In this document: positions 4,589-59,488 of the stretch, piece after piece | Layout: the number at the start of each line of letters is the position of its first letter | Numbering within the stretch: position 1 is the first letter of the stretch | NCBI GenBank assembly: GCA_025453395.1 | Contig: JALOQK010000002.1 | Coordinates: forward strand, 21,625 to 85,624 | DNA: 64,000 nucleotides | Reading direction: 5' to 3' | From: Candidatus Omnitrophota bacterium | GTDB lineage: Bacteria; Omnitrophota; Gorgyraeia; Gygaellales; Profunditerraquicolaceae | The notes under the pieces: generated by a model | Told to the model about the DNA's origin: nothing | The model's input: only the letters and a program-made list of their open reading frames with translations | The model's database searches: none | Translations under genes and position numbers: made by a program

Positions 4589-4598
4589 AGATATAATA

Positions 4599-4691
4599 TC
4601 AGCTATCAGCTTTCAGCTAAAAGCGTAAAGCTTAAAGCGAAAAACTAAAACTTAAAGCGAAAAATGAAAAGCAAAAACTAAAAGCGAAAAA
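4599..4691. repeat. heptanucleotide-periodic simple repeat (ATCAGCT / AAAAGCG / TAAAGCT units)
   Basis: Sequence reads atcagct atcagct ttcagct aaaagcg taaagct taaagcg aaaaact .. with strict 7-nt phase. Intergenic between dus and the next gene. The same units recur inside recG. Confidence 0.8.
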
Positions 4692-4697
4692 GGAAGA

Positions 4698-5177
4698 ATG
4701 GATATGAAAAAAATAGAATTAATGTTAACGGCATTCATTGCGGCAGGGATTTTCTTGTCTAGCGCGCAGGCTTCGGAAATAAAAGTAGAGGCGCAGGTGG
4801 ATAAGAAAGCAATGACTACGGATGAAGCGCTTACCTACAAAATAAGCGTTTCTTCTTTGGAAAACAAGCTTCCCGAAATAAAGCTTCCTGATTTTGCAGG
4901 CTTCACAGTAATTTCGCAGGCGCAATCAAGCTCATTTAACTTTTCTTCTGGAAAGGCCAATAATAGCGCGGTATTTATATATGTTTTAGCTTGTTTGAAG
5001 GTAGGGAAATTGGAGATCAAACCAGCTTCAGTAAAAATAGGAAAAGATACATTTACCACAGAATCTTTTGTTATAGAAGTAAAGCAAGGTAAGAATCCCT
5101 TAAGATCAAGGCCAGAAAAGCAAGATAATGCTTTGCCGGAAGAATTTACTTCTGACCGCCCGCAATACGCATTATAA
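4698..5177 (+). CDS. secreted protein, BatD-like N-terminal domain candidate
   Basis: Signal peptide followed by a pattern resembling the BatD N-domain (..LPEIKLPDFAGFTVISQAQSSS..KVGKLEIKPASVKIG..). Weak call. Confidence 0.3.
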   Translation: MDMKKIELMLTAFIAAGIFLSSAQASEIKVEAQVDKKAMTTDEALTYKISVSSLENKLPEIKLPDFAGFTVISQAQSSSFNFSSGKANNSAVFIYVLACLKVGKLEIKPASVKIGKDTFTTESFVIEVKQGKNPLRSRPEKQDNALPEEFTSDRPQYAL

Positions 5178-5182: not shown

Positions 5183-7321
5183 ATGGAAAATAATCCGCTT
5201 GAGCAGTCTGTCCAGTATCTAAAAGGGGTCGGCCCGGCACGCCTTAAATTGCTGCAGAAAATAGGGGTTAATTCTTTAGAAGACCTTTTGTATTATTTCC
5301 CCCGCCGCTATCAAGACCGCAGGAATTTTATTCCAATAGCAGCTTTAGAGCAAGGCCAAGTTCAGGCAATTAGAGCTAAGATTATTTCTTGTTATCAGCG
5401 CAGTTCTTTTTACCGCCGCGGGTTTAAGATAACTGAAATCGTTGCCGCAGATAAAAGCGGGAAAATTACCTGTGTCTGGTTTAACCAGCCCTACATTAAA
5501 AATTATTTGAAGATCGGCGAGGAAGCTATTTTCTACGGCAGAGTGGGGAGTTTTGGCAAGAAACTGCAGATGCACTCTCCGGAATTTGAAGTCTTATCTG
5601 TTGGCGAAGATGCGCAAGCAAATAGCGACAGCCTTATGCCGGTGTATTCTTTGCCGGATTCTATCACCCAGAGATATTTCCGGGATCTTATAAAATTAGT
5701 GATAGATGCCTATTTGCCAAAGCTGCATGATTTTATTCCTTATAGTATGCGTCAGCGTAATAATTTGTTAAACCTTGCCAAGGCGCTGGTAAGTATTCAT
5801 TTTCCTGCTGATCAAGAGGCGCGGGCCTTAGCCTATCAACGCTTGGCCTTTGATGAATTCCTGTTTTTCCAAATACCGCTGGCTTTAAGAAAACATCGCA
5901 GGAAAGAAGAACAGGGTATCGCCCATAAAACAGAAGGGGGCTTAGTGGATTGTTTCCTGCGCGGGTTAGGTTTTAAGCTAACTTCTTCGCAGGAGCAGGT
6001 TTTAAAAGAGATCAAGAAAGATATGGCCAGCCCTCAAGTTATGCAGCGGCTTTTACAGGGCGATGTTGGTTCAGGCAAGACCGTGGTAGCTACAGCTTCT
6101 TGCCTAATGGCTGTTCAGGGAGGCTTTCAGGCGGCATTTATGGTGCCTACGGAAATCTTGGCGAGACAGCATTATGAGAAAATAAGCTCTCAGCTTTCAG
6201 CTATCAGCCGTCAGCCTTCAGCTATCAGCCGTCAGCCTTCAGCTATCAGCTTTCAGCTAAAAGCAATAAAAGTGGCTTTACTAACTAGTGCGTTGAATAA
6301 GAAAGAAAAAGAGAAAATATATCAAGGCATAAAAAATGGAGCAATAAATTTGGTGATTGGCACGCACGCTTTACTGCAGCAACAGGTTGAATTTAAGAAT
6401 CTGGGGCTGGTGGTTATTGATGAACAGCATAAATTCGGCGTGGGTCAGCGAGCGTTATTGCCGCAAAAAGGAAAAAGCCCGGATATTCTGATCATGACCG
6501 CCACCCCTATCCCGCGGACTTTAGCAATTACCATTTATGGGGATTTGGATGTTTCTGTTATTTCGGAGTTACCTGCGGGCAAGGGCAAGATTAAGACCAT
6601 GAATTTTTCCGTCGGGCAAGAAAAAGCGGCCTATAGTTTGGCTAAAAAAGAGCTTGAGGCAGGCCGTCAGGCGTATATTATTTATCCGGTTATTGAAGAG
6701 TCTTATGCTTTGGATATGGAGGGCGCCAAGAAAAAATACGCGCAATTAAGTTCCGGAGATTTTAAACAATACCGCTTAGGGCTTATCCATGGCAGGCTTG
6801 ATGACAAACAGCAGAATCAATTGATGCAGGATTTCCGGGATAAGAAATTAGACATTCTTGTTTCTACCACTATTCTGGAAGTCGGGATTGATATCCCCAA
6901 TGCTACCTGTATAATCATTGAGAATGCCGAACGTTTTGGCTTGTCGCAGTTACATCAATTGCGGGGGCGGGTAGGAAGAGGCAAAGATGACGCCTATTGT
7001 TTATTGATTGCCAATACTTCTACTGTTGAAGCCAAGGCGCGCATGGAGGCAATGGTAAATTATAGCGATGGTTTTCATATTTCCGAGGAAGATTTAAGAA
7101 TCCGGGGGCCGGGTGAATTCTTCGGCATGCGCCAGCATGGCCTAAGCCAGCTTAAGATCGCCAATCCTCTGACCCAGATGCAGCTTTTAAAGAAGGCGCG
7201 TGATGAGGCACTGCGTTTGATTAATGACGATGCGGGGCTTGTTGCCAAAGACAATGTCTTGATCAGGCAGCGTTTATTCAAGGCCTTTCCGGAATATGAA
7301 AATTTAATACTCACGGGATAA
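5183..7321 (+). CDS. recG: ATP-dependent DNA helicase RecG
   Basis: Wedge domain, Walker A GDVGSGKT, DEQHKFGV, and QLHQLRGRVGRG helicase motif VI. Carries an in-frame repeat-derived insert at 6181..6262. Confidence 0.9.
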   Translation: MENNPLEQSVQYLKGVGPARLKLLQKIGVNSLEDLLYYFPRRYQDRRNFIPIAALEQGQVQAIRAKIISCYQRSSFYRRGFKITEIVAADKSGKITCVWFNQPYIKNYLKIGEEAIFYGRVGSFGKKLQMHSPEFEVLSVGEDAQANSDSLMPVYSLPDSITQRYFRDLIKLVIDAYLPKLHDFIPYSMRQRNNLLNLAKALVSIHFPADQEARALAYQRLAFDEFLFFQIPLALRKHRRKEEQGIAHKTEGGLVDCFLRGLGFKLTSSQEQVLKEIKKDMASPQVMQRLLQGDVGSGKTVVATASCLMAVQGGFQAAFMVPTEILARQHYEKISSQLSAISRQPSAISRQPSAISFQLKAIKVALLTSALNKKEKEKIYQGIKNGAINLVIGTHALLQQQVEFKNLGLVVIDEQHKFGVGQRALLPQKGKSPDILIMTATPIPRTLAITIYGDLDVSVISELPAGKGKIKTMNFSVGQEKAAYSLAKKELEAGRQAYIIYPVIEESYALDMEGAKKKYAQLSSGDFKQYRLGLIHGRLDDKQQNQLMQDFRDKKLDILVSTTILEVGIDIPNATCIIIENAERFGLSQLHQLRGRVGRGKDDAYCLLIANTSTVEAKARMEAMVNYSDGFHISEEDLRIRGPGEFFGMRQHGLSQLKIANPLTQMQLLKKARDEALRLINDDAGLVAKDNVLIRQRLFKAFPEYENLILTG
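6181..6262 (+). repeat. heptanucleotide repeat array embedded in frame in recG
   Basis: Sequence cagcttt cagctat cagccgt cagcctt cagctat cagccgt cagcctt cagctat cagcttt cagctaa, encoding ..SQLSAISRQPSAISRQPSAISFQLKA.. The 21-nt (3-unit) block is duplicated. The terminal agctatcagctttcagctaaaagc is identical to the intergenic element at 4599. Confidence 0.85.
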
Positions 7322-7324: not shown

Positions 7325-7879
7325 ATGCGTATTACAAGCGGCATTTACAAGAATCGTAAGCTTAAGATGCCTGCAGGTATTCGTCCGACACAGGAGAAAA
7401 CCCGCAAGGCCATATTTGATATTATGGGCGATATATCGGGCTTGAGGTTTTTGGAGCTTTTTGCCGGGTCAGGGGCGGTAGGTTTTGAGGCTTTGTCGCG
7501 GCAAGTTGAAGAGGTGGTCTTAGTGGAAGATAGCCGCGCCTGCCAAAAGGTGATTCAGGAGGCTATCCGGGATTGGAAAATCCCGAATTGTTCGCTTTTG
7601 CCTTTGCCTGTTCCCAAAGCCATAGAAATACTGGTGAAAAATAACGATAGATTTGATATTATCTTTATGGACCCCCCGTATTACCAGGATTGGGCAAAAA
7701 AAATCTTGCAAAGCCTATCCTCTTGTGATATATTAGCGCCCAATGGTTTTGTGGTTGCCCAGACGCACAAAACAGAGAATCTCCCTGATTGTCAGGGAGG
7801 TTTAATTTTGTTTAAGCGCTCTGTTTATGGAGATACGGTTCTTTGGTTCTATAAAAACAAGTTAAATGAGGTTACATAA
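7325..7879 (+). CDS. rsmD: 16S rRNA (guanine966-N2)-methyltransferase RsmD
   Basis: ..KTRKAIFDIMG.. LFAGSGAVGFEALSR .. DPPY motif. Confidence 0.8.
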   Translation: MRITSGIYKNRKLKMPAGIRPTQEKTRKAIFDIMGDISGLRFLELFAGSGAVGFEALSRQVEEVVLVEDSRACQKVIQEAIRDWKIPNCSLLPLPVPKAIEILVKNNDRFDIIFMDPPYYQDWAKKILQSLSSCDILAPNGFVVAQTHKTENLPDCQGGLILFKRSVYGDTVLWFYKNKLNEVT

Positions 7880-7960
7880 GGTTACATGGGGTTAATTGAG
7901 GTTGCCTTTGCAACGTCATGTAACATCATTTAACATCATGCAACTTCAGATAACCTATAT
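7855..7960. repeat. palindromic element built from ~10-bp GGTTACATGA-type units (family B, copy 1)
   Basis: Left arm gttaaatgag gttacataag gttacatggg gttaattgag gttgcc, then its approximate reverse complement tgcaacgtca tgtaacatca tttaacatca tgcaacttca. Confidence 0.75.
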
Positions 7961-10116: not shown

Positions 10117-11094
10117 ATGAATAGTGTCGGAATAATCGGAATAGGAAAATACCTGCCGAAAAAGGTCCTTACAAATCAGGACTTGGAAAAAATGGTGGAT
10201 ACTTCCGATGAATGGATTACTACCCGCACCGGAATTCAAGAAAGGCGTATTGCCGCGAAGAATGAAGCGTGTTCGGATTTAGCTTTAAAAGCAGCGCAGG
10301 ACGCTTTAAGTGATTCCAAAATAAACCCTTTAGATTTAGATCTGATTATTGTGGCAACTGTTACCGCGGATATGCATTTCCCTTCGGTGGCCTGTATTGT
10401 GCAAAGCAATCTGGGGGCTAAAAACGCTATTTGTTTTGATGTAAGCGCTGCCTGTGCCGGGTTTATCTACGCGCTTATAGTCGCCAAGCAATTTATTGCC
10501 CGCGGAAGCGTTAAGCATGCTTTAGTCATCGGAAGCGAGGTAATGTCTTATATTACTGATTGGACAGACAGAAATACTTGTGTTCTTTTCGGGGATGGTT
10601 CAGCGGCAGCAGTCTTGGGGCAGGTTAAGTCTGGGGGGATTATCGCCAGCCACTTAGGCTCTGATGGCTCAGTGCATGATATCTTAAATGTCCCTGCCGG
10701 AGGGTCCCGGATGCCTTTGACCAAGGATAATATTGATAAAAACATGCAATATATTAAGATGCGCGGCAATGAATTATTTAAGATGGCGGTTAATGCCATG
10801 AGCGACGCGGCTAAAAAGGCCCTGGAAAAGGCGCATTTAAAAGTAGAGGATGTGAATTTACTTATTCCGCATCAGGCGAATCAGCGCATTATTGCCGCGG
10901 TAGCCAAAAAATTGAACTTGAGCATGGATAAAGTATACCTTAATATAGCCCGTTACGGTAATATGTCTTCGGCTTCTGTGGCTGTGGCTTTATGCGAAGC
11001 GGTAAAAGAAGGCCGGATTAAGAAAGGCGATATCATTGTTTTAGATTCTTTTGGCGCGGGGCTTGTTTGGGCAGCTTGTGTTATAAAATGGTGA
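10117..11094 (+). CDS. fabH: 3-oxoacyl-ACP synthase III
   Basis: Active-site Cys in AACAGF, His/Asn motifs, ..GAGLVW.. C-terminus. Confidence 0.9.
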   Translation: MNSVGIIGIGKYLPKKVLTNQDLEKMVDTSDEWITTRTGIQERRIAAKNEACSDLALKAAQDALSDSKINPLDLDLIIVATVTADMHFPSVACIVQSNLGAKNAICFDVSAACAGFIYALIVAKQFIARGSVKHALVIGSEVMSYITDWTDRNTCVLFGDGSAAAVLGQVKSGGIIASHLGSDGSVHDILNVPAGGSRMPLTKDNIDKNMQYIKMRGNELFKMAVNAMSDAAKKALEKAHLKVEDVNLLIPHQANQRIIAAVAKKLNLSMDKVYLNIARYGNMSSASVAVALCEAVKEGRIKKGDIIVLDSFGAGLVWAACVIKW

Positions 11095-11104: not shown

Positions 11105-11139
11105 GCTGATAGCTGATAGCTGATGACTGAAAGCTGATA
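11105..11139. repeat. heptanucleotide repeat (GCTGATA units)
   Basis: gctgata gctgata gctgatg actgaaa gctgata. This is the reverse-complement orientation of the ATCAGCT family. Confidence 0.75.
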
Positions 11140-11141: not shown

Positions 11142-12077
11142 ATGGATAAATGCGCATTTTTATTCGCTGGGCAGGGCAGTCAATATATAGGCATGGGCAA
11201 GGACCTTTATGAATCTTTCCCGGCAAGCCGGCAGATCTTTGACCGGGCCGAAGAGGTCTTAGGTTTTGACTTGAAAAGGCGCGTATTTGAAGGGCCGCAG
11301 GAATTGCTGCGCATGACAAGCGTCTCGCAGCCAGCAATTCTTACTGTAAGTTTAGCTTGTTATGAAGCTTTTAAATCATCTGACATCTGTCCTCTGTCCT
11401 CTGTGCAGTATACAGCAGGACTAAGTCTAGGTGAATACACTGCTTTAATAGCAGCAGGCAGTATTTCCTTTAAAGACGGGATTCTTTTGGTGAGAAAAAG
11501 AGGGGAATTAATGGAGGAGGCGGCAACTAAACATCCCGGAAAGATGGCCGCAGTGCTAGATCTTTCTTTGGATGCCTTAAAAGAAATCTGCGCTAAAACG
11601 CATGCTGAAATCGCCAATCTTAATTGCCCGGGACAGGTAGTTATTTCCGGAAAAGCTGAAGCTGTGGACAAGGCCATGGAACTATGTGTCCAGGCGCAAG
11701 CCAAGAGGGTTATTCCTCTTGAAGTAAGCGGCGGTTTTCATTCTTCGCTTATGAAAGAGGCGTCCGTAGAGTTTAGTAAGGTTTTGGATACGGTAGAGAT
11801 ACTCCCGGCTAAGATACCGGTGGTTAGTAATTATACCGCGTCTGTGCAGGCTCAGCCCGGAGAGATCAAGGCTAATCTAGTGGCGCAGATGTATTCTTCG
11901 GTGCGCTGGGAAGAGTCTATGCGGTTTATGATCGCTGAAGGGGTTTCAAAGTTTTACGAATTTGGCCCGGGCAAGGTATTAAAAGGTTTAGCCCGCAAGA
12001 TTGACGCGCAAGCAAATGTGCTAAACATAGAAAAAAGAGATGATGTTATTAACCTTCAAAAGGATGAGGTGAAATAA
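11142..12077 (+). CDS. fabD: malonyl CoA-ACP transacylase
   Basis: FAGQGSQYIGMG and the GLSLGEY active-site serine motif. Confidence 0.9.
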   Translation: MDKCAFLFAGQGSQYIGMGKDLYESFPASRQIFDRAEEVLGFDLKRRVFEGPQELLRMTSVSQPAILTVSLACYEAFKSSDICPLSSVQYTAGLSLGEYTALIAAGSISFKDGILLVRKRGELMEEAATKHPGKMAAVLDLSLDALKEICAKTHAEIANLNCPGQVVISGKAEAVDKAMELCVQAQAKRVIPLEVSGGFHSSLMKEASVEFSKVLDTVEILPAKIPVVSNYTASVQAQPGEIKANLVAQMYSSVRWEESMRFMIAEGVSKFYEFGPGKVLKGLARKIDAQANVLNIEKRDDVINLQKDEVK

Positions 12078-14466: not shown

Positions 14467-15762
14467 ATGGGCTATACAATAGCTGAAAAAATCTTAATGG
14501 CGCACGCCGGAAAAAAGGATATTCATCCGGGTGAGTTTATTGAAGCCAAAGTCGATATCGCTTTAGGCAATGATATTACCGCGCCTTTGGCGATTGAAGA
14601 ATTTAAGAAGACAGGAGTAAAGAAAGTATTCGATAATAAGAAAATAGTTCTGGTGCCGGATCATTTTGCCCCTGCTAAAGATTTAAAAAGCGCCAATCAA
14701 TGCAAAATTCTGGCTAATTTTGCCCAAGAGCAAAAGATCAAGAATTATTTTGAGGTAGGTTGTATGGGCATAGAGCATGCCCTCTTGCCGGAAAAAGGGA
14801 TAGTCGGGCCCGGATATTTGGTGATCGGGGCCGATTCTCATACCTGTACCTATGGGGCCTTAGGCGCTTATGCTACTGGGGTTGGCTCAACGGATTTAGC
14901 GCGCGCTTTCATAGACGGGGAATGCTGGTTTAAAGTTCCGGCATCGGTTAAATTTGTTTATAAAGGAAAATTAAAGAAGTGGGTTGGCGGGAAAGACCTT
15001 ATACTTTTTACTATTGGGCAGATCGGTGTTGATGGGGCCCTGTACAAAGCAATGGAATTTACCGGCCCTGTTATAGATAAGCTTCCCATGGATGATCGTT
15101 TTTCTATGTCAAATATGGCCATAGAAGCCGGAGCCCGGGCAGGGTTGATTAACCCGGACGAGATTACTTTAAGTTATATGGAAGAAAGTCAAAAGTCAAA
15201 AGTCAAAAGTCAAAAGTTCAGAGCAAAAGTTAAAAGCTTAAGATCAGATGATGATGCTGTATATGAGAAAGTTTATGATTGGGATGTGAGTAATTTAGAG
15301 CCGCAGGTCGCCTGTCCGCATTTACCAAGCAACACTAAACCTGTGGGAGAGTTGAGTAATATTACTGTTGACCAGGTAGTCATTGGTTCTTGCACTAACG
15401 GCAGGATTGCTGATTTGCGCACCGCAGGCAAGATTCTAAAGGGCAAGAAAATAAAACCTGGTTTGCGTTTGATTGTTATCCCGGCAACCCAGAAAATCTA
15501 TCTGGAAGCAGTCCAAGAGGGTTTGGCAGAAATATTTGTCAAAGCAGGCGGGGTTTTCTCTACGCCTACCTGCGGCCCGTGTTTAGGCGGACATATGGGT
15601 ATTTTAACTGAAGGCGAAAGGTGCCTGGCCACAACCAATAGAAATTTTATTGGCAGGATGGGGCATCCTAAATCCGAGGTTTATTTGTCAAGCCCCGCGG
15701 TCGCCGCCGCAGCGGCAGTTACAGGAAGGATTACGCATCCCGAAGAAATAAATAAACAATAA
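14467..15762 (+). CDS. leuC: 3-isopropylmalate/homoaconitate-type dehydratase large subunit (short archaeal-type LeuC)
   Basis: [17 protein letters not shown].., aconitase-family Cys ligands (GSCTNGR, CGPCLG). A small-subunit gene follows. Carries an in-frame heptamer repeat insert. Confidence 0.75.
15183..15240 (+). repeat. AAAAGTC heptamer repeat array in frame inside leuC
   Basis: aaagtc aaaagtc aaaagtc aaaagtc aaaagtt cagagca aaagtta aaagctt, encoding ..[18 protein letters not shown].. Confidence 0.8.
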
Positions 15763-15862
15763 CCAATACCCAAATCTGTTTGGTCAATTGGTTATTGATT
15801 ATTGGGTATTGTTTGGTGTTTCCAGATTTGGTGTTTGGTGATTAAATAAACAGGTATAGCTA
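15763..15862. other. structured ~100-bp spacer between leuC and leuD with inverted repeats
   Basis: ccaatacccaaatctg .. cagatttgg and ttgggtattg segments are mutually complementary. This is unusual for a large/small subunit pair, which are normally translationally coupled. Confidence 0.4.
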
Positions 15863-23660: not shown

Positions 23661-24686
23661 ATGATCAATGCCGGAATTGTCGGGGCAAGCGGTTATACCG
23701 GAGAAACCCTTTTAGGTATTCTTCTGAAGCACCCCTTTGTGCGCTTAAGTTATCTTTCCCGGGGCCAGGATAAAGAACAGAAGATATCTGAGCTGTTTCC
23801 TAAATTTGAGAAAATAAGCGGCCTCTCCTGCGGGCCGACGGATATCAAGCAAATAAAAGAAAAATGCGATGTGGTTTTCTTGGCTATGCCGCATACCGCT
23901 TCCATGAGCCTGGTGCCGAAGCTTATTTCTTGCGGCAAAAAGGTCATAGATTTAAGCGCGGATTATCGCATAACCGATTATAGGCTTTACGAGAAATCTT
24001 ATCAGGTTAAGCATACGGATAAGGCCAATTTAAAGCAGGCAGTTTACGGACTGCCGGAGCTTTATCGCAATAAAATAAAAACCGCCAGTTTAATCGCCAA
24101 CCCCGGATGTTATCCCACAGCGGCAGTTTTGGCATTAGCGCCGCTTTTGGGCCTTGGGGTTATAGAAAAAGACAATATTATTATAGACGCTAAGTCCGGG
24201 ATAAGCGGCGCAGGGAAGAAAATGTCGGAGGGATTTTTGTTTAACGAGGCCAATGAGGATTTTAAGGCCTATAAGGTAAACAGCCATCAGCATGCTCCGG
24301 AGATAAATCAGATCTTGTCACGGCTGACAGGCAGGAAGACAGAAATTATTTTTGTGCCGCATCTTTTGCCTTTGTATAGGGGGATATTGGAAACTATATA
24401 TGTAAAGAGGTCGGAAGTCAGAGGTCGGAAGTCAAAAGGCAATATAATCGAGTTGTATAAGAAATTCTATAAGGATGAGCCGTTTGTCAGGATTAAGAAG
24501 GACGCGGAATTCCCGCGCCTAAAAGATGTGCAGGGGACAAATTTCTGCGATATCGGGATAAAGGATTGCGGAAGTAATATTATTATTATTTCTGCTATTG
24601 ATAACCTGATCAAGGGGGCTTCTGGACAGGCAGTGCAGAATATGAATATTATGTATAACTTTCCTCAAGAGACCGCGCTTCTATGA
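23661..24686 (+). CDS. argC: N-acetyl-gamma-glutamyl-phosphate reductase
   Basis: AGIVGASGYTGETL .. active-site Cys region PGCYPTA. Carries an in-frame heptamer insert at 24417..24441 (RSEVRGRKSKG). Confidence 0.9.
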   Translation: MINAGIVGASGYTGETLLGILLKHPFVRLSYLSRGQDKEQKISELFPKFEKISGLSCGPTDIKQIKEKCDVVFLAMPHTASMSLVPKLISCGKKVIDLSADYRITDYRLYEKSYQVKHTDKANLKQAVYGLPELYRNKIKTASLIANPGCYPTAAVLALAPLLGLGVIEKDNIIIDAKSGISGAGKKMSEGFLFNEANEDFKAYKVNSHQHAPEINQILSRLTGRKTEIIFVPHLLPLYRGILETIYVKRSEVRGRKSKGNIIELYKKFYKDEPFVRIKKDAEFPRLKDVQGTNFCDIGIKDCGSNIIIISAIDNLIKGASGQAVQNMNIMYNFPQETALL

Positions 24687-26693: not shown

Positions 26694-27875
26694 ATGAAGT
26701 TAGAGGAAGTATTTCAATCTTACAGCGATTTTATAATGCCTACTTACGCTAAAACCCCGCTTGTCTTTGTCAAGGGCAAGGGCAGTTTTCTTTGGGATAT
26801 CCATAGCAAGAAATATTTGGATTTTTTCCCGGGATGGGGCGTAGGAAGCATGGGCCATTGCCATGCTAAGGTGGTGCAGGCGATAAGGGAGCAGGCCGCG
26901 AAACTTATTTTTGTGCCTAATAATTATTATACCCTGGCGCAGGCAAAGTTAGCAAAAAAACTTGTTAGTTTAGCCTTTCCCTCTAAAGTATTTTTCTGCA
27001 ATTCTGGGGCTGAAGCCAATGAAGCCGCGATAAAGTTTAGCCGTAAGTTCGGCAATGGAAGATATGAGATCATAACCTTTCAGGATTCTTTCCACGGGCG
27101 CACCGCTGGGGCATTGGCTGCCACGGGCCAGAAAAAATATCAAGAAGGTTTTCAGCCGCTTTTATCAGGCTTTAAGCTGGCGCAGTTTAATAATTTAGAT
27201 TCGGTGAAATCTCTGATTAATCCCGATACGGTTGCGATTATGTTGGAGCTTATCCAGGGAGAGGGCGGAGTTAACGTTGCCGGTTTAGATTTTATCAAGG
27301 CCTTAAGGGAAATTTGCGACCAGAATAAGCTTCTTTTGATCGTGGACGAAGTGCAAACTGGGATTGGCAGGACGGGGAAGTTTTTTGCTTATCAGCATTA
27401 TGGGATAATCCCTGATATAATTACTTTAGCCAAGGCCTTAGGCGCAGGTTTGCCGATAGGGGCTATGTTAGTCAAAAAAGAAATTGCTGATATATTAACA
27501 TCCGGAACACACGCTTCTACTTTTGGCGGGGGTGCGGTAGTTTGCGCCTCAAGCCTGGCGGTTTTAAAGGCCATGCGCGATGAAGATATTCTTAGTAATG
27601 TGCGTGATGCAGGGGAATATCTTTTTGAGATGGCTTTTAAGTTAAAGGAAAAATATAATATTATCCAAGATGTCAGAGGCAGGGGATTGATGCTAGGCAT
27701 ACAGCTTAAATGCCCGGGTAAGGATATTGTTGCAAAATGCATGCAGAAGGGGCTTCTTATTAATTGCACGCATGATACAGTATTACGGTTAATGCCGGCC
27801 CTTAATGTTACCAAGAAACAGATAGGCCAGGGGATGAGAATATTAGAAGACGTAATTAAGAAAGCGAAAAGTTAA
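26694..27875 (+). CDS. argD: acetylornithine aminotransferase
   Basis: Class III aminotransferase: DEVQTGIGRTG, PLP-Lys in TLAKALGAG. Sits inside the arg gene string. Confidence 0.85.
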   Translation: MKLEEVFQSYSDFIMPTYAKTPLVFVKGKGSFLWDIHSKKYLDFFPGWGVGSMGHCHAKVVQAIREQAAKLIFVPNNYYTLAQAKLAKKLVSLAFPSKVFFCNSGAEANEAAIKFSRKFGNGRYEIITFQDSFHGRTAGALAATGQKKYQEGFQPLLSGFKLAQFNNLDSVKSLINPDTVAIMLELIQGEGGVNVAGLDFIKALREICDQNKLLLIVDEVQTGIGRTGKFFAYQHYGIIPDIITLAKALGAGLPIGAMLVKKEIADILTSGTHASTFGGGAVVCASSLAVLKAMRDEDILSNVRDAGEYLFEMAFKLKEKYNIIQDVRGRGLMLGIQLKCPGKDIVAKCMQKGLLINCTHDTVLRLMPALNVTKKQIGQGMRILEDVIKKAKS

Positions 27876-27900
27876 AAGCGTAAAGCGAAAAGCGAAAAAA
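27871..27900. repeat. AAAAGCG heptamer repeat
   Basis: aaaagcg taaagcg aaaagcg aaaaaat. Confidence 0.7.
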
Positions 27901-27923
27901 TAAAACAAATACGAGGCAAAGAC

Positions 27924-28844
27924 ATGAAAAAAGATTTAATTTCCATAAAAGATTTATCATCTGCAGAGATAAATCAGCTTTTTGATTTGACTGCGCAATT
28001 AAAAAGGAACAAGAATAAATTCTCTCGGGTTTTAAGCGGAAAGACTTTGGCCCTGATTTTCCAAAAGCCCTCAAACCGCACGCGGGTTTCTTTTGAAGTG
28101 GGGATGTATCAGCTGGGAGGAAATTCCATATATTTATCCCCGGGAGAGATAAACCTTGGGGTCAGGGAATCTATCCCGGATGCGGCTAAAACTCTTTCCC
28201 GTTATGTGGATGGGATTGTTTTAAGGACTTTTGCGCATAAAAACGTGATTGAATTGGCTAAATATGCGGATATCCCTGTAATAAACGGTTTATCGGATTT
28301 TTCTCATCCCTGCCAGGCGCTGGCGGATATCTATACGGTTGTTGAGAAATTAGAAAATGTGAAGGGAAAAACCTTAGCTTATGTGGGCGACGGAAACAAT
28401 GTTTGTAATTCGCTTTTATTTATTTGCGCCAAGACCGGCATGAACATTAATGTTGCTGCGCCTGTTGGCTATAAGCCTGATAGAGCGGTGGTGGAGCAAG
28501 CAGAAAATATCGCCCTGCCCAATAAAAGCAAAGTTAGCATTTTTAGCGATCCCTTAAAGGCTGTTAAGGGCTCGGATGTTATTTATACCGATGTTTGGAC
28601 CAGCATGGGGCAGGAAAAAGAGGCCTTAAACAGGCTCAAGGCTTTTAAAGGCTTTCAGATTAATCAGCGGCTTTTGGCGCATGCCAAGAAGGGTGTCCTT
28701 GTTATGCATTGCCTGCCCGCGCACAGAGGCGAGGAAATTACCGGAGAAGTTATGGACAGCAAAAATTCAGTAGTTTTTGATCAGGCGGAAAACCGCATGC
28801 ACGTGCAGAAAGCAGTGTTGATTAAACTGTTAAAACAGCTGTAA
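27924..28844 (+). CDS. argF: ornithine carbamoyltransferase
   Basis: STRTR carbamoyl-phosphate motif and the HCLPAHRGEE motif. Confidence 0.85.
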   Translation: MKKDLISIKDLSSAEINQLFDLTAQLKRNKNKFSRVLSGKTLALIFQKPSNRTRVSFEVGMYQLGGNSIYLSPGEINLGVRESIPDAAKTLSRYVDGIVLRTFAHKNVIELAKYADIPVINGLSDFSHPCQALADIYTVVEKLENVKGKTLAYVGDGNNVCNSLLFICAKTGMNINVAAPVGYKPDRAVVEQAENIALPNKSKVSIFSDPLKAVKGSDVIYTDVWTSMGQEKEALNRLKAFKGFQINQRLLAHAKKGVLVMHCLPAHRGEEITGEVMDSKNSVVFDQAENRMHVQKAVLIKLLKQL

Positions 28845-28892
28845 GCTGTAAGCTATAAGCTGTAAGCTGAAGACTGATAGCTGACAGCTGGA
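28836..28892. repeat. GTAAGCT / GATAGCT heptamer repeat
   Basis: gtaagct gtaagct ataagct gtaagct gaagact gatagct gacagct. Overlaps the argF stop. Confidence 0.75.
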
Positions 28893-30084: not shown

Positions 30085-30200
30085 AAAATGGGTGAGGTTG
30101 TATAAGGTTACATGAGGTTAAATGATGTTACATGAGGTTGCAAAAAGCTTTAAAGCAACTTCATGTAACCTTCGGTAACTTCATGCAACTTTAATTAACC
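30085..30200. repeat. family B palindromic element (copy 2)
   Basis: aggttacatg aggttaaatg atgttacatg aggttgcaaaaagc ttt aaagcaactt catgtaacct tcggtaactt catgcaactt. Confidence 0.75.
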
Positions 30201-30224
30201 TTATAATTACGGAGGTTTTTATAC

Positions 30225-31578: not shown

Positions 31579-32856
31579 ATGCATTATTTCCAATATAAAA
31601 ATAACCGCCTTTTTTGCGAAGACGCTGATATCCAGGAGCTGGCTGTTAAACACGGCACTCCGCTGTATCTGTACAGCTATAAGACTTTAGTCGACCACTT
31701 TGTGAAATTAACAGATGCCTTCAGTGAAATTGACGCGCTTATTTGTTATTCGGTGAAAGCAAATTCAAACTTAAGCATTCTAAAGGCGCTTGTCAAGAAA
31801 GGCGCAGGGCTTGATATAGTTTCAGGAGGAGAATTGTTCCGCGCGCTTCGTGCCGGCTGTCCCCCTGAAAGGATCGTCTATGCATCGGTGGGCAAAACCG
31901 CTCAGGAGATAAAACAGGCTTTACAGAAAGGTATTTTATTCTTTAATGTGGAATCTATCCCGGAGCTTGAGAATATTAACCGCATAGCAGGTAATTTAAA
32001 TAAAACTGCCCGGGTAGCTCTGCGTATCAATCCCGACGTTGAAGCCAAGACCCATAAATACATTACTACCGGAAAACTTACCAATAAATTCGGTATTGAC
32101 CTTGAAAGCGCGCGCAGGATATTCGGCAGGTCAGCTGAATTTCCTAATCTGCGCATTTGCGGTATTCACATCCACATCGGCTCTCAAATCACTCAAAGCG
32201 CTCCGTTTGTGGCGGCGATAAGGAAAATAGCAGTGTTTATCGATTCCTTGAAGAAAGACGGCATTTGTCTGCAGTATTTGAACATTGGAGGGGGTTTAGG
32301 CATTGTTTATAATAAAGAAACTCCGCAGACAGCCGCTATATACGCTAGCAAGGTTATGGGTTTGCTTAAGAAGACAGGTTTGAAGATTATTCTGGAGCCG
32401 GGAAGGTTTATCGTCGGTAATAGCGGGATATTATTGGCAAAGGTTTTGTATGTCAAAAAAACATTTAAGAAGAATTTTATTATTGTGGATGCGGCAATGA
32501 ATGACTTGATAAGGCCGGCCCTTTATGAAGCGTATCACGAAATCCTGCCGTTGGTAAGATTTCAAGGTGGAAAGCCAAAAGCCAAAAGTCAAAAGTTTGA
32601 TGTGGTCGGCCCTATTTGCGAGAGCGGGGATTATTTTGCCAAAGGCCGCCTATTGCCACAAATTAAAGAGGGCGATTATTTGGCGATTATGAGCGCCGGC
32701 GCCTATGGTTTTAGCATGTCCAGCAATTATAATTCCCGCTGCCGCGCCCAAGAAGTAATGGTAGTCGGCAAAAAAGATTTTGTGATTAGAAATAGAGAGA
32801 TTCGCGAGGATCTAATACGTAACGAGAAAATCCCGCAGTTCTTAAGGCGAAAATGA
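31579..32856 (+). CDS. lysA: diaminopimelate decarboxylase
   Basis: Fold-III PLP decarboxylase (..YSVKAN.., ..HIHIGSQ.., ..GPICESGD..). Carries an in-frame heptamer insert at 32571..32598 (KPKAKSQK). Confidence 0.85.
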   Translation: MHYFQYKNNRLFCEDADIQELAVKHGTPLYLYSYKTLVDHFVKLTDAFSEIDALICYSVKANSNLSILKALVKKGAGLDIVSGGELFRALRAGCPPERIVYASVGKTAQEIKQALQKGILFFNVESIPELENINRIAGNLNKTARVALRINPDVEAKTHKYITTGKLTNKFGIDLESARRIFGRSAEFPNLRICGIHIHIGSQITQSAPFVAAIRKIAVFIDSLKKDGICLQYLNIGGGLGIVYNKETPQTAAIYASKVMGLLKKTGLKIILEPGRFIVGNSGILLAKVLYVKKTFKKNFIIVDAAMNDLIRPALYEAYHEILPLVRFQGGKPKAKSQKFDVVGPICESGDYFAKGRLLPQIKEGDYLAIMSAGAYGFSMSSNYNSRCRAQEVMVVGKKDFVIRNREIREDLIRNEKIPQFLRRK

Positions 32857-33689
32857 GAAAAATAAAATTTACAAAAATGGTCGCATCTGGTAATGATTTT
32901 GTCGTTGTTGATAAGCTTAAAGCTTATAGCTTAAAGCTTAAAGCTTTTTCTAAATCTATTTGTGACAGAAAATATGGAGCTGGGGCTGATGGGCTGCTAA
33001 TTTTGTCACAGCTTGTATTATCTCATGGCAAGCGTTCCGCTTCCTGCGGTATGCGTATTTTTAATGCCGATGGCTCTGAAGCCCAGATGTGCGGCAATGG
33101 GGCTAGGTGCGCGGCGTTGTATTTCAGCTGTCAGCTGTCAGCTGTCAGCTGTCAGCAAAAGATAAAAATAGAAACCAAAGCAGGGGATATACATTCTTTA
33201 GTAAACGGTAATAATGTAAAGATTAAATTAACTGATCCCAAAGGTTTAAGATTAAACATTCCAATTAAGCTTAATGGCAGAACGCTTAAGGTTAATTTTA
33301 TTAATACCGGGGTCCCGCATGCGGTTATTTTTGTGGAGGGCCTTGATAAAATTGACGTGGATAATTTAGGCAGAGCTATTCGTTATCATCAGGTTTTCAA
33401 GCCGCAAGGCGCGAATGTAAATTTTGTGGAAGTTTTGAATAATACTTCTATCAGGATAAGGACTTATGAAAGAGGCGTAGAGGGCGAAACTTTAGCCTGC
33501 GGTACCGGCTCTGTTGCTTCGGGTTTGCTTACCGCTTACAACTTACCGCTTACAGCTAATATTATAAATGTCCACACCCGGGGCGGCCAGATATTAAAAG
33601 TTGATTTTCAAAAATCAGGCGATGGTTTCAAGGATGTCTGGTTAGAGGGCAAAGCAAAAATTGTATACCAAGGAGAATACTATGTTTAG
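32853..33689 (+). CDS. dapF: diaminopimelate epimerase
   Basis: ..ASGNDFVVVD.. N-terminus, GNGARC catalytic Cys motif, second Cys in ..LACGTGS... Contains two internal heptamer repeat arrays. Confidence 0.85.
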   Translation: MRKIKFTKMVASGNDFVVVDKLKAYSLKLKAFSKSICDRKYGAGADGLLILSQLVLSHGKRSASCGMRIFNADGSEAQMCGNGARCAALYFSCQLSAVSCQQKIKIETKAGDIHSLVNGNNVKIKLTDPKGLRLNIPIKLNGRTLKVNFINTGVPHAVIFVEGLDKIDVDNLGRAIRYHQVFKPQGANVNFVEVLNNTSIRIRTYERGVEGETLACGTGSVASGLLTAYNLPLTANIINVHTRGGQILKVDFQKSGDGFKDVWLEGKAKIVYQGEYYV

Positions 33690-34557
33690 AGGATCAATTG
33701 TGGCTATGGTCACGCCATTTAAAGACGAAAAAATTGACGAGAAGAGATTCAGAAGTTTAATTGATTTTCAGATTGAAAACGGCACTTCCGGCATCGTCCC
33801 CTGCGGCACTACAGGTGAATCCGCGACATTGTCGGTTAAAGAGCACCAGCGTTTGATTGAATTGGCCATAGAGCAGGTGAATAAGCGCGTGCCGGTAATT
33901 GCCGGTACAGGTTCCAACTCTACGGATGAGGCGATCACTTTAACGAAGCACGCTTTTCATGCGGGCGCAGATGCTTCTTTGCAGGTAGCTCCGTATTATA
34001 ACCGCCCTACCCAGACCGGGTTATACCAGCATTTTAAGAAAATAGCCCAAGCAGTAGATATCCCGATCATTGTTTATAATATTGCTTCCCGCACAGGGGT
34101 TAATATCGAGCCGGAAACTATCGCGAAGCTGGCCTCTGAATGTAAGAATATTGTAGGAGTGAAAGAGGCATCCGGAAATCTTGAGCAGATGTCTCGTATC
34201 TTAAGTCTTACTCCAGCAGGATTTATTCTTCTTTCAGGAGATGATGCGCTCACACTTCCTGTTTTAAGCATCGCAGGAGCAGGGGTAATTTCTGTGGTGG
34301 CTAATATTGTTCCAAAAGATGTTTCCAGGCTGGTAAATGTCTTTGAAGATGGCGACATCCAAAAGGCGCAAGATATGCATTACAAACTTTTTCCGCTTGT
34401 CAAAGCTATGTTTATTGAAACAAATCCTATACCGGTTAAAACCGCGATGGGCCTGTTAAAGATGTGTTCACCGGAACTTCGTCTTCCGATGTCAGAAATG
34501 CTTCCTGACAATGTAGAGAAACTTAAGAAGGCGTTGAAAAATTACGGGTTATTATAA
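33682..34557 (+). CDS. dapA: 4-hydroxy-tetrahydrodipicolinate synthase
   Basis: MFRGSIVAMVTPF .. GTTGES; Schiff-base Lys in GVKEASGN. Start chosen at MFRG (aggaga ribosome-binding site 6 nt upstream). Confidence 0.85.
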   Translation: MFRGSIVAMVTPFKDEKIDEKRFRSLIDFQIENGTSGIVPCGTTGESATLSVKEHQRLIELAIEQVNKRVPVIAGTGSNSTDEAITLTKHAFHAGADASLQVAPYYNRPTQTGLYQHFKKIAQAVDIPIIVYNIASRTGVNIEPETIAKLASECKNIVGVKEASGNLEQMSRILSLTPAGFILLSGDDALTLPVLSIAGAGVISVVANIVPKDVSRLVNVFEDGDIQKAQDMHYKLFPLVKAMFIETNPIPVKTAMGLLKMCSPELRLPMSEMLPDNVEKLKKALKNYGLL

Positions 34558-34660
34558 AGGAAGTTAAATAAGGTTACATGAAGTTACCGTAGGTTAAATT
34601 AGGTTGCTTAAAAGCTTTTTGCAACTTCATTTAACATCATTTAACCTCAATTAACCTTAA
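34558..34660. repeat. family B palindromic element (copy 3)
   Basis: aagttaaata aggttacatg aagttaccgt aggttaaatt aggttgcttaaaagctttttgcaa cttcatttaa catcatttaa cctcaattaa. Confidence 0.75.
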
Positions 34661-37826: not shown

Positions 37827-38650
37827 TGCGAAAGAAAATAAGGATCGGGATTGTCGGATGCGGAGCGATCGGCTCTTCTTTGGCAAAAGCTATAACTAAA
37901 GAATTTTCTGCAGATGCTTACGTGTCGGCATTGTTTGACACTCAGCCCGATAAGGCGCAGCTTTTATCTGTGGCGCTTCGCAAAGATATTTCTTTGGCAG
38001 TTTCTTCCCTTAAAGACCTGATCAGCTTCTCTGATTTTATAATAGAATCTTCAAGCGCTCAGGCCTCAGGCGGAATCTGCCGTCAGGCTGTCAATAACGG
38101 CAAGGATATATTGGTGATGAGTGTGGGAGGGCTTCTGAAGAGTTATCCGCGGATATTTAATTTAGCTAAAAAGAAAAAGGTGAAAGTCTATATCCCAAGC
38201 GGAGCTATCGGCGGGGTTGATGCCTTAAAGGCCCTGAATCTGTCAGATGTCAAAAAGGTCACGCTTACTACCACTAAAAACCCTATCGCTTTTAAGAAAG
38301 TGGAATATTTGATTAAGAAGCGCATTGTGCTTTCCGAAATTAAGAGTAAAAAAGTTTTATTTTACGGAAACGCTTTAAGGGCAGTGCGTTGTTTTCCGCA
38401 GAATATCAATGTGGCGGCTGTTTTATCATTAGTTGGAATAGGCGCGAAGCAAACAAAAGTAAAGATCGTTGCTTCTCCAAAGGTTAACAAGAACATACAT
38501 GAAGTGCAAATAATTTCCCGGGCCGGTAATTTTTATAGCCGTTCGGAGAATGTATTGCATCCGGGCAACCCAAAGACCAGCTACTTGGCTTTTTTATCGG
38601 CAAAGGCGCTGTTGCGCGATATTTTTCTGCCGGTTAAAATAGGCACATAA
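37826..38650 (+). CDS. nadX: L-aspartate dehydrogenase candidate
   Basis: IGIVGCGAIGSSLAKAI Rossmann N-terminus, ~270 aa, C-terminal ..HPGNPKTSYLAFLSA... A family-level guess only. Confidence 0.5.
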   Translation: MRKKIRIGIVGCGAIGSSLAKAITKEFSADAYVSALFDTQPDKAQLLSVALRKDISLAVSSLKDLISFSDFIIESSSAQASGGICRQAVNNGKDILVMSVGGLLKSYPRIFNLAKKKKVKVYIPSGAIGGVDALKALNLSDVKKVTLTTTKNPIAFKKVEYLIKKRIVLSEIKSKKVLFYGNALRAVRCFPQNINVAAVLSLVGIGAKQTKVKIVASPKVNKNIHEVQIISRAGNFYSRSENVLHPGNPKTSYLAFLSAKALLRDIFLPVKIGT

Positions 38651-38820
38651 TAGATGTTAAATGAAGTTACATGAAGTTAAATAAGGTTAAATGAAGTTGC
38701 TCGAAGAATGTTACATGAAGTTGCATGAGGTTACATAAAGTTACATGACGTTGCAAAATAATTTCTTTTATGCAACCTCACGTAACATCATTTAACCTCA
38801 TGCAACCTCAATTAACTTCA
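38651..38820. repeat. family B palindromic element (copy 4, longest)
   Basis: At least eight direct units (gttaaatgaa gttacatgaa gttaaataag gttaaatgaa gttgctcgaa .. gttacatgaa gttgcatgag gttacataaa gttacatgac gttgcaaaataatttcttttatgcaa), then inverted units cctcacgtaa catcatttaa cctcatgcaa cctcaattaa. Confidence 0.8.
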
Positions 38821-38845
38821 AAAAGAGAGGGGGTGAATACAGAAT

Positions 38846-41996: not shown

Positions 41997-42000
41997 GTAA

Positions 42001-42030
42001 AAAGTCAAAAGTAAAAAGTCAAAAGTAAGA
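42001..42030. repeat. AAAAGTC heptamer repeat (intergenic)
   Basis: aaagtc aaaagta aaaagtc aaaagta agaag. Confidence 0.7.
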
Positions 42031-42044
42031 AGATTAAATTAAAA

Positions 42045-46802: not shown

Positions 46803-47193
46803 GGTCCATCTCCAAAGATCAAGCGTGCTGCTTGTTACCTTATTTATTGTGCTTATCGCGGTGATCTTGGCGCAGGTTATGTTATCTATTCTAAGAAGCC
46901 ACTCCCGCCTTTCCCATCATCAAGTAAGCAGGATCCAGGCCCAGTATGCTGCCATGGCAGGGGTGGTTTATGCTTATGATAGCTTAAGAAGTGGGCATTT
47001 GTCATCTAGCGATTGCCCAGAAGGTAATTCAAATCCAAAGTGCCGGGTAGATGATAATAATTTCCCCGTTTGCATAAAGGATAAAAGAGTAAAAATTATT
47101 CTTTGCCCCGCAGGCGCCACCTGTGCGGGTAAAACCTGCCCTGTCTCAAATAATCTCTGCATCTATTCTACCGCAGAGTATACCTATAATTAA
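46795..47193 (+). CDS. membrane-anchored Cys-rich protein of unknown function
   Basis: N-terminal TM VLLVTLFIVLIAVILAQV. C-terminal domain with 8 Cys (CPEGNSNPKC .. CIKD .. CPAGATCAGKTCP .. C). Confidence 0.35.
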   Translation: MIRVHLQRSSVLLVTLFIVLIAVILAQVMLSILRSHSRLSHHQVSRIQAQYAAMAGVVYAYDSLRSGHLSSSDCPEGNSNPKCRVDDNNFPVCIKDKRVKIILCPAGATCAGKTCPVSNNLCIYSTAEYTYN

Positions 47194-47290
47194 GTCTAAG
47201 TAAGTCTAAGTAAATCTATCGTATTTCTGTTAGTCATCTTTTCCGGCGGAGTATACTGCTATAAGTAAGTCCAAGTAAGTCTGCATAAAA
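47194..47290. repeat. TAAGTC-based short tandem repeats
   Basis: taagtctaagtaagtctaagtaaatcta .. taagtaagtccaagtaagtctg. Unit length differs from the 7-nt family. Confidence 0.6.
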
Positions 47291-47375: not shown

Positions 47376-47564
47376 ATGCCAAGACTTATAGACATTGATG
47401 AGTTAGCAGAATATCTGAAATTAAAGAAGCAGACGATTTATAATTGGCTGCACGAAAGAAAGATTTCAGGTATTAAGGTTGGCGGGGTCTGGAGATTTGA
47501 CCGCCGCGAGGTAGACGCCTGGCTTAGGAGCAGACGGCGTTTATCTACAACAGGAGATAAATAA
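47376..47564 (+). CDS. helix-turn-helix DNA-binding protein (excisionase/MerR-like HTH_17 family)
   Basis: LIDIDELAEYLKLKKQTIYNWLHERKISGIKVGGVWRFDRREVDAWL. Its stop overlaps the pilM start. Confidence 0.6.
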   Translation: MPRLIDIDELAEYLKLKKQTIYNWLHERKISGIKVGGVWRFDRREVDAWLRSRRRLSTTGDK

Positions 47565-49108: not shown

Positions 49109-49121
49109 AACAGAGGGTTTT

Positions 49122-49643: not shown

Positions 49644-49653
49644 AGGTTAAGAT

Positions 49654-53394: not shown

Positions 53395-53411
53395 AATAAA
53401 AGGAATAAATT

Positions 53412-54650: not shown

Positions 54651-54672
54651 AGGTAAAAGGTTAATTAAGGTA

Positions 54673-54700
54673 TTGACAACAAAGAATTTAAGGTTAAAAT
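54673..54700 (+). promoter_or_regulatory. sigma70-like promoter ahead of the pilin genes
   Basis: TTGACA, 16-nt spacer, TAAAAT. An additional gttataat lies downstream. Ribosome-binding site aaggag. Confidence 0.5.
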
Positions 54701-54755
54701 ATATTTTAGGTAAACGTTATAATAAAATAGAAATTAACATAAGAAAGGAGTAGTT

Positions 54756-55169: not shown

Positions 55170-55176
55170 TCAATGG

Positions 55177-59385: not shown

Positions 59386-59390
59386 CTAAA

Positions 59391-59480: not shown

Positions 59481-59488
59481 GCTTATTT

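Follow-up and report, generated by a model that had tools for sequence, protein, structure and literature searches.

We analysed a 64,000-nt stretch of DNA from a Candidatus Omnitrophota bacterium (contig JALOQK010000002.1 of assembly GCA_025453395.1; at JGI, 3300037461 Ga0392394_0000003), referred to here as the window, in which tandem arrays of 7-nt units lie within the reading frames of leuC, argC, lysA, recG, dapF and fabD and in many intergenic spacers. These arrays are probably heptanucleotide microsatellites of the short tandemly repeated repetitive (STRR) kind, found throughout a clade of Omnitrophota and shaped by slippage and homogenisation together with selection for reading frame and length. 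Those within genes look like microsatellites of frozen length, not on/off switches.

Arrays were detected with Tandem Repeats Finder (TRF) and a lag scan of our own, with shuffles of the 64-kb window for comparison. The lag scan found 15 period-7 arrays in the window and none in the shuffles. No array had a period of 4–6, 8, 9 or 11–13, and seven had a period of 10. Head-to-tail 7-nt units are in excess over other unit lengths, as expected of heptanucleotide simple sequence repeats (SSRs) and STRR sequences. Matches to AAAAGTCAAAAGTC with at most two mismatches number 14, compared with 0.97 expected, and none of 100 shuffles reached 14, which excludes chance. Two unit families, AAAAGNN and AGCTNTC, are present with their reverse complements. 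The first is found in leuC, argC and lysA and in the spacers at 42000, 27861, 4620, 56681 and 59453; the second is found in recG and dapF and in the spacers at 4597, 11105, 28837 and 56840. Further units, including AAGCTTA, TCAGCTG, GCTTACA and CATCTGW, occur across recG, the three dapF sites, fabD and many intergenic spacers. Non-coding DNA makes up about 8% of the window, and nine of the 15 period-7 arrays lie in it or reach into it, three of them overlapping stop codons. A few related units at many dispersed loci, with a preference for non-coding DNA near gene ends, are also features of STRR-type repeats.

A sequence-only reading of the window had described AAAAGTC-type arrays in leuC, argC and lysA and at one intergenic site, which lies beside uvrA. 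All four sites and their translations are as it quoted them, and the host genes are confirmed by NCBIfam. Its restriction of the phenomenon to AAAAGTC units and Lys/Ser-rich inserts does not hold, since other units occupy recG, dapF, fabD and many spacers. The coding arrays are 7-nt repeats at the DNA level, translated in all three phases. AAAAGNN, for example, is read as AAA AGN NAA AAG NNA AAA GNN, and the Lys/Ser-rich peptide is merely this three-phase translation and no general property of the arrays. Those in recG, dapF and fabD encode peptides of quite another kind.

The gene leuC (14467–15762; leuC, argC and lysA, the arrays within genes and the array beside uvrA are on the forward strand) encodes the 431-aa large subunit of 3-isopropylmalate dehydratase (TIGR02083 LeuC in NCBIfam, 677.8 bits; NCBI MCU0665717.1). 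Its array, at 15185–15236 (TRF period 7, 7.6 copies), corresponds to LeuC aa 240–257 and consists, in order, of GAAAGTC, three copies of AAAAGTC, AAAAGTT, a 6-nt CAGAGC, AAAAGTT and AAAAGCT; positions 15185–15217 form a perfect 33-nt tract of AAAGTCA (4.7 copies). A homologous eight-unit layout is present in leuC of at least seven species, namely that of the window and the relatives designated L160, L163, L167, L168, L169 and L170, and the irregular 6-nt unit at position 6 is common to all seven. Across these species the AAAAG core is kept and unit positions 6–7 vary, with the most decayed array in L168. Because one homologous layout is found in the DNA of the window and of six homologs, the array must be old, its length having stayed constant while the proteins diverged by about 18%. 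Among the 120 nearest LeuC homologs (77–83% identity), 49 match the loop length of the window exactly, and many have a K/S/Q-rich segment very similar to its own.

Conservation in the leuC array extends to synonymous positions. Where the array encodes the same residue in two species, the codon is also the same far more often than a background stratified by amino acid predicts: at 13 of 15 such residues for the window and L160 (6.9 expected, p = 0.0009), and at 12 of 13 for the window and L167 (5.4 expected, p = 0.0002). The perfect 33-nt tract is also common to the window and L167, whose leuC genes are only 74% identical in DNA; by a rough inference, the chance of such an identity is 0.74^33, or about 5e-5. 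Given the conserved codons and the 33-nt tract, one of two processes must be at work, homogenisation inside the array or selection on the nucleic acid itself.

At the protein level, the leuC segment is 10 aa longer than in array-free Omnitrophota orthologs and 4 aa longer than in the M. jannaschii structure 4KP1. In an AlphaFold2 model of the window LeuC (mean predicted local distance difference test score, pLDDT, 86.7), the array-encoded residues 243–246 and 249–257 are helical, and residues 241–260 have block-mean pLDDT values of 82–90. Because it is predicted to be helical at these pLDDT values, the insert is, according to the model, not a disordered loop. The units found at the leuC loop differ among species: AAAAGTC in the window, AAGCCGC in L002, AGTYCAC followed by its inverse in L005, CGTTACC in L010 and CTATMCG in L019. 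In L003 and L016 the non-repeated sequence GTCACAAGT resembles GTCAAAAGT of the window. The L005 gene contains inverted arrays at 1323–1420, four copies of AGTYCAC and four of GTGGACC, which make up a complete in-frame hairpin element of +54 nt in the same loop as the window's array.

In argC (23661–24686; N-acetyl-gamma-glutamyl-phosphate reductase, 341 aa; TIGR01850 ArgC), the site of the array stands as first described. The repeat, given earlier as heptamers, fits a perfect 14-nt duplication better: AGAGGTCGGAAGTC is present in 2.07 copies at 24406–24434 (TRF). It reads KRSEVRGRKSKG and encodes RSEVRGRKSKG, as quoted earlier. The array is a G-substituted derivative of the AAAAGNN array present in relatives at the same position: L001, L007, L160 and L163 have AAAAGNN there, and L169 has four copies of AAAGCAC. 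Its length differs by at most 3 aa between the window and the relatives. The argC site points to continuing turnover, with a perfect 14-nt duplication inside an AAAAGNN-homologous array with the length essentially unchanged. The segment is 1–3 aa longer than in relatives and 5 aa longer than in T. maritima 1VKN.

The array in lysA (31579–32856; diaminopimelate decarboxylase, 425 aa; TIGR01048 LysA) lies at 32571–32596 (TRF, 32571–32595) and reads AAAGCCA AAAGCCA AAAGTCA AAAGT, or 3.6 copies, encoding KPKAKSQK (GKPKAKSQKF in a wider reading). The segment exceeds that of most relatives by 6 aa and that of 3N2B by 5 aa, and the loop is of equal length in PDB 4XG1. Arrays of other units occupy the same lysA loop in relatives: ACCAATT in L133, CGAWGTR in L100 and 8-nt units in L085 and L087. 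The array at 41992–42032 (TRF, 41995–42032), with 5.4 copies of AAAAGTC/AAAAGTA, begins on the uvrA stop codon and takes up most of the spacer between uvrA and the next gene.

The recG array has 10.6 copies of AGCTNTC/AGCCNTC that span 74 nt (6185–6258), encode SSQLSAISRQPSAISRQPSAISFQ and show a higher-order period of 21 nt (3.2 copies). RecG is 19 aa longer than the T. maritima protein 1GM5. At the same site L008 has 4.7 copies of TCAGCTY, and the window is longer by 42 nt, or 2 × 21 nt. The first 18 nt of the two recG arrays are identical, at 61% protein identity. Perfect repetition extends over 4.7 units in leuC, 2 + 1.6 units in lysA and 2 × 14 nt in argC; the recG units are mutually different.

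Three arrays are found in dapF. The first, 4.9 copies of AAGCTTA at 32913–32946 (TRF and lag scan), departs from this unit once: TAGCTTA puts TAT where TAA would otherwise stand in frame, clear evidence that a repeat arising in the DNA has been filtered for an open frame. The second, 4.7 perfect copies of TCAGCTG at 33124–33156, encodes FSCQLSAVSCQ directly after the catalytic-Cys helix. The third, at 33527–33557 (TRF), has 4.4 copies of GCTTACA, also described by a perfect 14-nt unit in 1.9 copies. Relative to 5HA4 the three sites differ by 0, +2 and +1 aa, and L133 has arrays at the same three sites. In L096 the second site contains a segment resembling a miniature inverted-repeat transposable element (MITE), translated as VSLRGATRRSNLKNRDCFAPAGLAMT, and in L133 AAATCAA arrays lie on either side of a double CCCGAC/GTCGGG hairpin there. 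The fabD array, CATCTGA CATCTGT CCTCTGT CCTCTGT, was found by the lag scan at 11377–11404; among relatives the length of this loop is constant and seven different heptamer units fill it. In dapF and fabD the arrays take the place of other sequence and add little or nothing to the length. The proposal that the arrays are insertions into loops is borne out in part: the coding-array segments that were measured against solved structures are naturally length-variable. A helix is predicted for the LeuC insert, the lysA loop has its full length in 4XG1, and dapF and fabD gained little, so that "loop" alone does not describe the inserts.

To place these arrays in their lineage, we turned to relatives of the window. 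The best matches among GTDB species representatives are Omnitrophota metagenome-assembled genomes (MAGs) with at most 81% LeuC identity. Close Omnitrophota relatives, sampled over 703 kb, have 39 period-7, 11 period-8 and 7 period-14 arrays (14 being a multiple of 7), and at most 2 of any other period. The 1.41 Mb sampled from other phyla contains 14 period-7 arrays; there it is repeats with a period divisible by 3 that are common. Orthologs of leuC (30), fabD (17), lysA (35) and dapF (28) were then scanned for hot spots, strong periodicity being defined as at least 18 matches in 21. It occurs at lag 7 only, apart from two lag-8 cases in lysA, and within these genes the arrays recur at the protein positions they have in the window and at no others. 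The units found at one site often vary from species to species. Units of 8 nt are seen in L085 (1367–1399), L087 (2514–2544), L009 (10069–11600) and L133 (8968–9046), with the sequences AAGGTCAC, AGGTCACC, AGAACTGA and AGGTGTTA, and some of these arrays occupy the same lysA loop in frame, so that 7 is the usual period and not a strict one. In L133 the identical unit AATTACC is present at 5042–5086 (intergenic), 10967–10999 (lysA) and 11311–11344 (dapF).

Where the length of an array was seen to change, it did so in steps of 21 nt. L160 and L161/L162, which come from different samples, are 99.7% identical over 10.6 kb and differ by three indels only. The largest, 21 nt or three units, falls in a heptamer hairpin array just upstream of leuC (L160 2391–2411), which is direct evidence of instability; the coding arrays are unchanged. 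In this one comparison, copy number differs between close strains, as it does in STRR-type repeats. The only differences in length observed, 42 nt in recG and 21 nt in the intergenic polymorphism, are thus multiples of 21 nt. Because the unit is 7 nt, a change of one unit shifts the frame, an argument that holds as arithmetic and from which selection on total length had been proposed. This selection is supported by the leuC layout, kept with its compensating 6-nt unit in at least seven species, and by the recG difference of exactly two 21-nt steps.

Based on these observations, we suggest the following course of events. Strand slippage and misalignment on 7-nt repeats would generate the arrays and keep homogenising them, and a few unit families, AAAAGNN and AGCTNTC in this window, would come to recur genome-wide. 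Most arrays would persist in intergenic spacers, where inverted pairs may form hairpins. Within genes, the survivors would be arrays that contain no stop codon, keep the frame and lie in surface segments tolerant of changes in length. Purifying selection would then freeze their length, so that only steps of 21 nt (three units) or compensated changes are tolerated, and templated misalignment would keep the units alike or swap in a new variant. Templated misalignment would explain why the arrays at orthologous sites of different species are equal in length and differ in unit. The arrays themselves, their excess, their distribution over lineages, their recurrence at orthologous sites, their conserved length, the surplus of synonymous conservation and the changes of 21 nt are observed; that slippage and templated homogenisation are the mechanism, and that switching has no adaptive role, we infer.

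Several observations weigh against this account. AAAAGTC is present in leuC, lysA and the spacer at 42000, and AATTACC at three loci in L133; purely local slippage is insufficient for such recurrence, and the L133 case in particular is hard to explain by it. Units recurring within a genome may point to dispersal, to ectopic conversion or to some preference for the sequence. The two-arm hairpin inside L005 leuC looks more like an inserted element, and the excess synonymous conservation could equally well reflect a function of the DNA or RNA. Slippage also gives no reason why the period should be 7.

The first alternative is that the arrays derive from small mobile palindromes similar to MITEs, repetitive extragenic palindromic (REP) sequences or REP doublets forming hairpins (REPINs), the coding arrays each being one surviving arm. 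Many intergenic heptamer arrays in the window are indeed inverted pairs able to fold. The leuC–leuD spacer contains AATAACC arrays followed by inverted ATTGGTT/TGTTTGG arrays that form a hairpin (15751–15843), and 4.7 copies of AGCTGTA run across the argF stop codon with an inverted partner (28837–28890). Upstream of a tRNA-Ala gene, AAAGCGC, forming the arm of a palindromic element, is combined with six copies of GCTGATA (56681–56881). An AT-rich palindromic element of about 100 nt at 59384–59484 has heptamer-periodic arms, AAAGCGN and GCTTTTC, and shares an exact 27-nt core (56720 and 59421) with the element at 56695–56803, so that a near-identical core is present twice in the window; a more divergent AT-rich element of about 100 nt with AAAGCGN-type periodic arms lies at 63142–63244. 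The fold of the heptamer palindromic element is only weakly better than that of shuffles (z = -1.64). The remaining intergenic arrays are 3.3 copies of TATCAGC followed by AAAGCGT/AAAACTN (4597–4695), five of GCTGATA (11105–11139) and 5.4 of AAAGCGA across the argD stop codon (27861–27905); apart from the leuC–leuD hairpin and the two elements at 59384 and 63142, these intergenic arrays were called by both TRF and the lag scan. In relatives, the orthologous spacers contain hairpins of other units or no hairpin.

An origin from such elements would also account for both arms being present in L005 leuC, for the unrelated small inserts at one dapF site in L096 and L133 and for one unit occupying several loci of a genome. 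REP, REPIN and MITE-like sequences are likewise imperfect intergenic palindromes that follow genes in several copies (PMC3116915, PMC3733652), and a Y1 transposase gene (PF01797; IS200/IS605-like or of the REP-associated tyrosine transposase, RAYT, type) is found in the syntenic region of the relative L163 (14898–15488), between truA and rplM. In the window, the gene calls between truA and rplM are DUF6541 and DUF2079 proteins, with no Y1 counterpart called. We nevertheless consider a mobile origin doubtful. The coding arrays of the window have no inverted partner. The arms of the intergenic palindromes are themselves short-period tandem arrays, unlike those of REP or MITE-like elements. Units at a site resemble the local non-repeated sequence of relatives (GTCACAAGT compared with GTCAAAAGT), suggesting growth in place, and the fabD arrays vary between species in unit and not in length. 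Neither Pfam and NCBIfam scans of 33 window genes, which did not cover every open reading frame (ORF), nor the gene calls of the L081 stretch revealed a transposase, a reverse transcriptase or another enzyme with an obvious link to repeats. A non-exhaustive search turned up no target-site duplications, termini of the GTAG/CGTC type were not seen, and the genes examined did not include a linked RAYT gene.

A second, unlikely alternative to slippage is that a dedicated process in this clade writes, maintains or reads heptamer tracts as a DNA or RNA signal. Candidates include a specialised polymerase or template switching, RNA-templated addition of repeats at breaks, and ectopic conversion from a genomic "master" unit. 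If true, this would account at once for the recurrence of units across loci, the wholesale change of unit at constant length and the synonymous conservation in essential genes.

It is also rather unlikely that the units themselves are functional motifs, recognition sites in DNA or mRNA kept inside genes, for example for an oligonucleotide/oligosaccharide-binding (OB)-fold or cold-shock-type protein that reads heptamers. The leuC synonymous sites, conserved well beyond background, the AAAAG core retained in all units over seven species with positions 6–7 free to vary, and the 18 nt identical between the recG arrays of the window and L008 all fit such a role, and heptamer binding by CspB has been discussed (PMC4679880). 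However, completely different units at the same site in different species, as in fabD, leuC and lysA, are hard to fit to one recogniser. The array has decayed in some lineages (L168), and homogenisation by misalignment accounts for the synonymous conservation as well. When the window was searched against Rfam at the gathering threshold, a tRNA was the sole match; none of the arrays is covered by a family, and neither are the hairpins of the 10-nt repeats described below.

The sequence-only reading had suggested phase-variable auxotrophy, in which hypermutable slippage of ±7 nt would switch leucine, arginine and lysine biosynthesis off and on reversibly. In favour of contingency loci, the 7-nt unit inside the frames of leuC, argC and lysA is not a multiple of 3, the leuC tract is perfect over 4.7 units and strains differ in the length of one intergenic array from the same family. 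Heptanucleotide SSRs do cause phase variation in Haemophilus influenzae (PMC8262952). Tetra- and heptanucleotide contingency loci of that species resemble the arrays here in having units that are not multiples of 3 in or near genes and in the slippage presumed to act on them, yet they are long, perfect, strain-variable tracts in genes for surface structures, lipopolysaccharide (LPS) or restriction-modification (PMC2651432, PMC8262952). The arrays described here are short or interrupted tracts in the middle of genes of core metabolism, some expected to be essential, and their length is conserved across species. The unit lies inside the reading frame and is not a multiple of 3; ON/OFF length variation between strains or related species was not seen, and fabD and dapF are not expected to be dispensable. 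The length and layout of the leuC array are identical in at least seven species, frozen over about 18% protein divergence; the same loop length is found in 49 of 120 nearest homologs, the tracts in argC and lysA are neither long nor perfect, and the only length differences are multiples of 21 nt. Arrays also lie mid-gene in recG, fabD and dapF, and a frameshift in either of the last two would leave no viable state to revert from. fabD and dapF are established as essential for fatty-acid and peptidoglycan synthesis; for this organism their essentiality is an expectation. Nor were near-identical protein variants found: all six window proteins are singletons in 90% clusters, and relatives present on up to nine contigs have one protein sequence. 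The JGI metagenome collection contained no usable sequence from the same species, the best lysA match being 72% identical. Switching of this kind is therefore very improbable, and the arrays look instead like microsatellites held at constant length.

Protein-level selection for flexible or charged Lys/Ser-rich segments, with the DNA periodicity incidental, is equally remote as an explanation. Dozens of homologs keep the LeuC insert as a K/S/Q-rich segment, for which the model predicts a helix with fair confidence. A period of 7 nt that reaches synonymous positions, and not one of 3 or 21, the unrelated peptides encoded in recG, dapF and fabD and the identical units in non-coding DNA argue against it. 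Equivalent K/S-rich segments in homologous enzymes of distant taxa, which the sequence-only reading had named as refuting it, are found in part: K/S/Q-rich counterparts lie at that position in many related species, but they are shared by homology of the array and not by a need of the enzyme family. An artefact of sequencing or assembly is effectively refuted: the sequence is a metagenome assembly, and Logan (k = 31) lacks the exact proteins whose arrays exceed 31 nt, yet the arrays are shorter than reads, the long ORFs are intact, the array-bearing proteins of the MAG are in both NCBI and JGI/IMG (though probably from the same sample), and many assemblies made independently, from other samples and with other pipelines, contain homologous arrays.

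STRR1–3 have the units CCCCAGT, TTGGTCA and CAACAGT. The arrays here work like STRR sequences and lie outside the named cyanobacterial families, differing in both unit and host. As in the STRR sequences of Calothrix, Nostoc and Anabaena and in the GGGNATC repeats of Nostoc and Xanthomonas (PMC4692102), tandem 7-nt units fall into a few dispersed families, are strongly enriched in non-coding DNA, in many cases no more than 50 nt from the end of a gene, and are confined to certain lineages. Unlike these, the present arrays occur in Omnitrophota, have unrelated A/T-rich units (AAAAGNN, AGCTNTC) with no G-quadruplex potential, form intergenic hairpins from inverted arrays and lie in frame in housekeeping enzymes at positions shared across species. 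The TAACTGA direct repeats of marine Beggiatoaceae and cyanobacteria (PMC4679880) are similar in forming mostly intergenic arrays of 2–6 or more copies, in that stop codons limit the orientation they can take inside ORFs, in occasional translation as a 7-aa repeat and in strain indels of 7-nt increments. Theirs is a single dominant unit, located mainly upstream of start codons, and the cases within ORFs are mostly hypothetical proteins, whereas here there are many unit variants at orthologous leuC, argC, lysA, dapF, fabD and recG sites, frozen in length over long evolutionary distances. An excess of heptanucleotides among bacterial SSRs, strain indels in 7-nt increments and translated heptamer repeats have been described before (PMC4679880, PMC4692102). 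For Omnitrophota, our literature search brought up no relevant work on heptamer or tandem repeats.

Essential genes are normally purged of repeats with a unit length not divisible by three, since each slip shifts the frame. The arrays described here persist over long evolutionary times at fixed positions of leuC, argC, lysA, dapF, fabD and recG across an uncultured phylum. They offer a natural experiment on the birth, homogenisation and freezing of microsatellites under a strict length constraint, on which sites in well-known enzymes tolerate insertions, and on why seven is favoured as a unit length in bacteria, a puzzle since the STRR work and the surveys of Mrazek. There are practical consequences as well. 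Annotation can mistake such arrays for contingency loci or low-complexity linkers, and arrays longer than the k-mer of an assembler break short-k assemblies. In the Logan assemblies (k = 31) the exact LysA, ArgC and FabD are present and LeuC, RecG and DapF (14467–15762, 5183–7321 and 32853–33689) are absent. The latter three are the genes with perfect arrays longer than 31 nt, so that short-k assembly probably breaks at these repeats.

Three further candidates were considered for the heptamers and rejected. AAAAGTC does not fit the slippery heptamer X XXY YYZ of ribosomal frameshifting, and the downstream frames are closed. A G-quadruplex, as for GGGNATC repeats, is inconsistent with units that have no G-runs. 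In the (ARN)n motif of Hfq, the triplet phase would be broken by the 7-nt period. A natural frameshift was also considered for leuB of L163 (11750–12956), which is split into two ORFs; between them the scaffold has a run of N whose flanks are duplicated, so that the split is an assembly artefact.

The window contains a second repeat family, in which tandem 10-nt units, GTTACATGAG, are followed by the inverse, CTCATGTAAC, to form long intergenic hairpins after genes. Copies lie at 7859–7946, 30095–30201, 34555–34659 and 38653–38820, with direct copies at 47187–47281. The hairpin at 38650–38825 has a folding energy of -48.7 kcal/mol (z = -6.15). At the 5' end of recA (62113–62151), the in-frame tandem repeat AAAGAAGAGCACAAG (2.6 copies) has a period of 15 nt, a multiple of three, unlike the heptamers. 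Arrays flank both the tRNA-Ala(CGC) gene (56959–57032) and a gene for a 23S rRNA intervening-sequence protein (61590–61955). The region 47564–55596 encodes a type IV pilus or type II secretion cluster comprising PilM, PilO, a secretin, an ATPase, a platform protein and two prepilin-like proteins.

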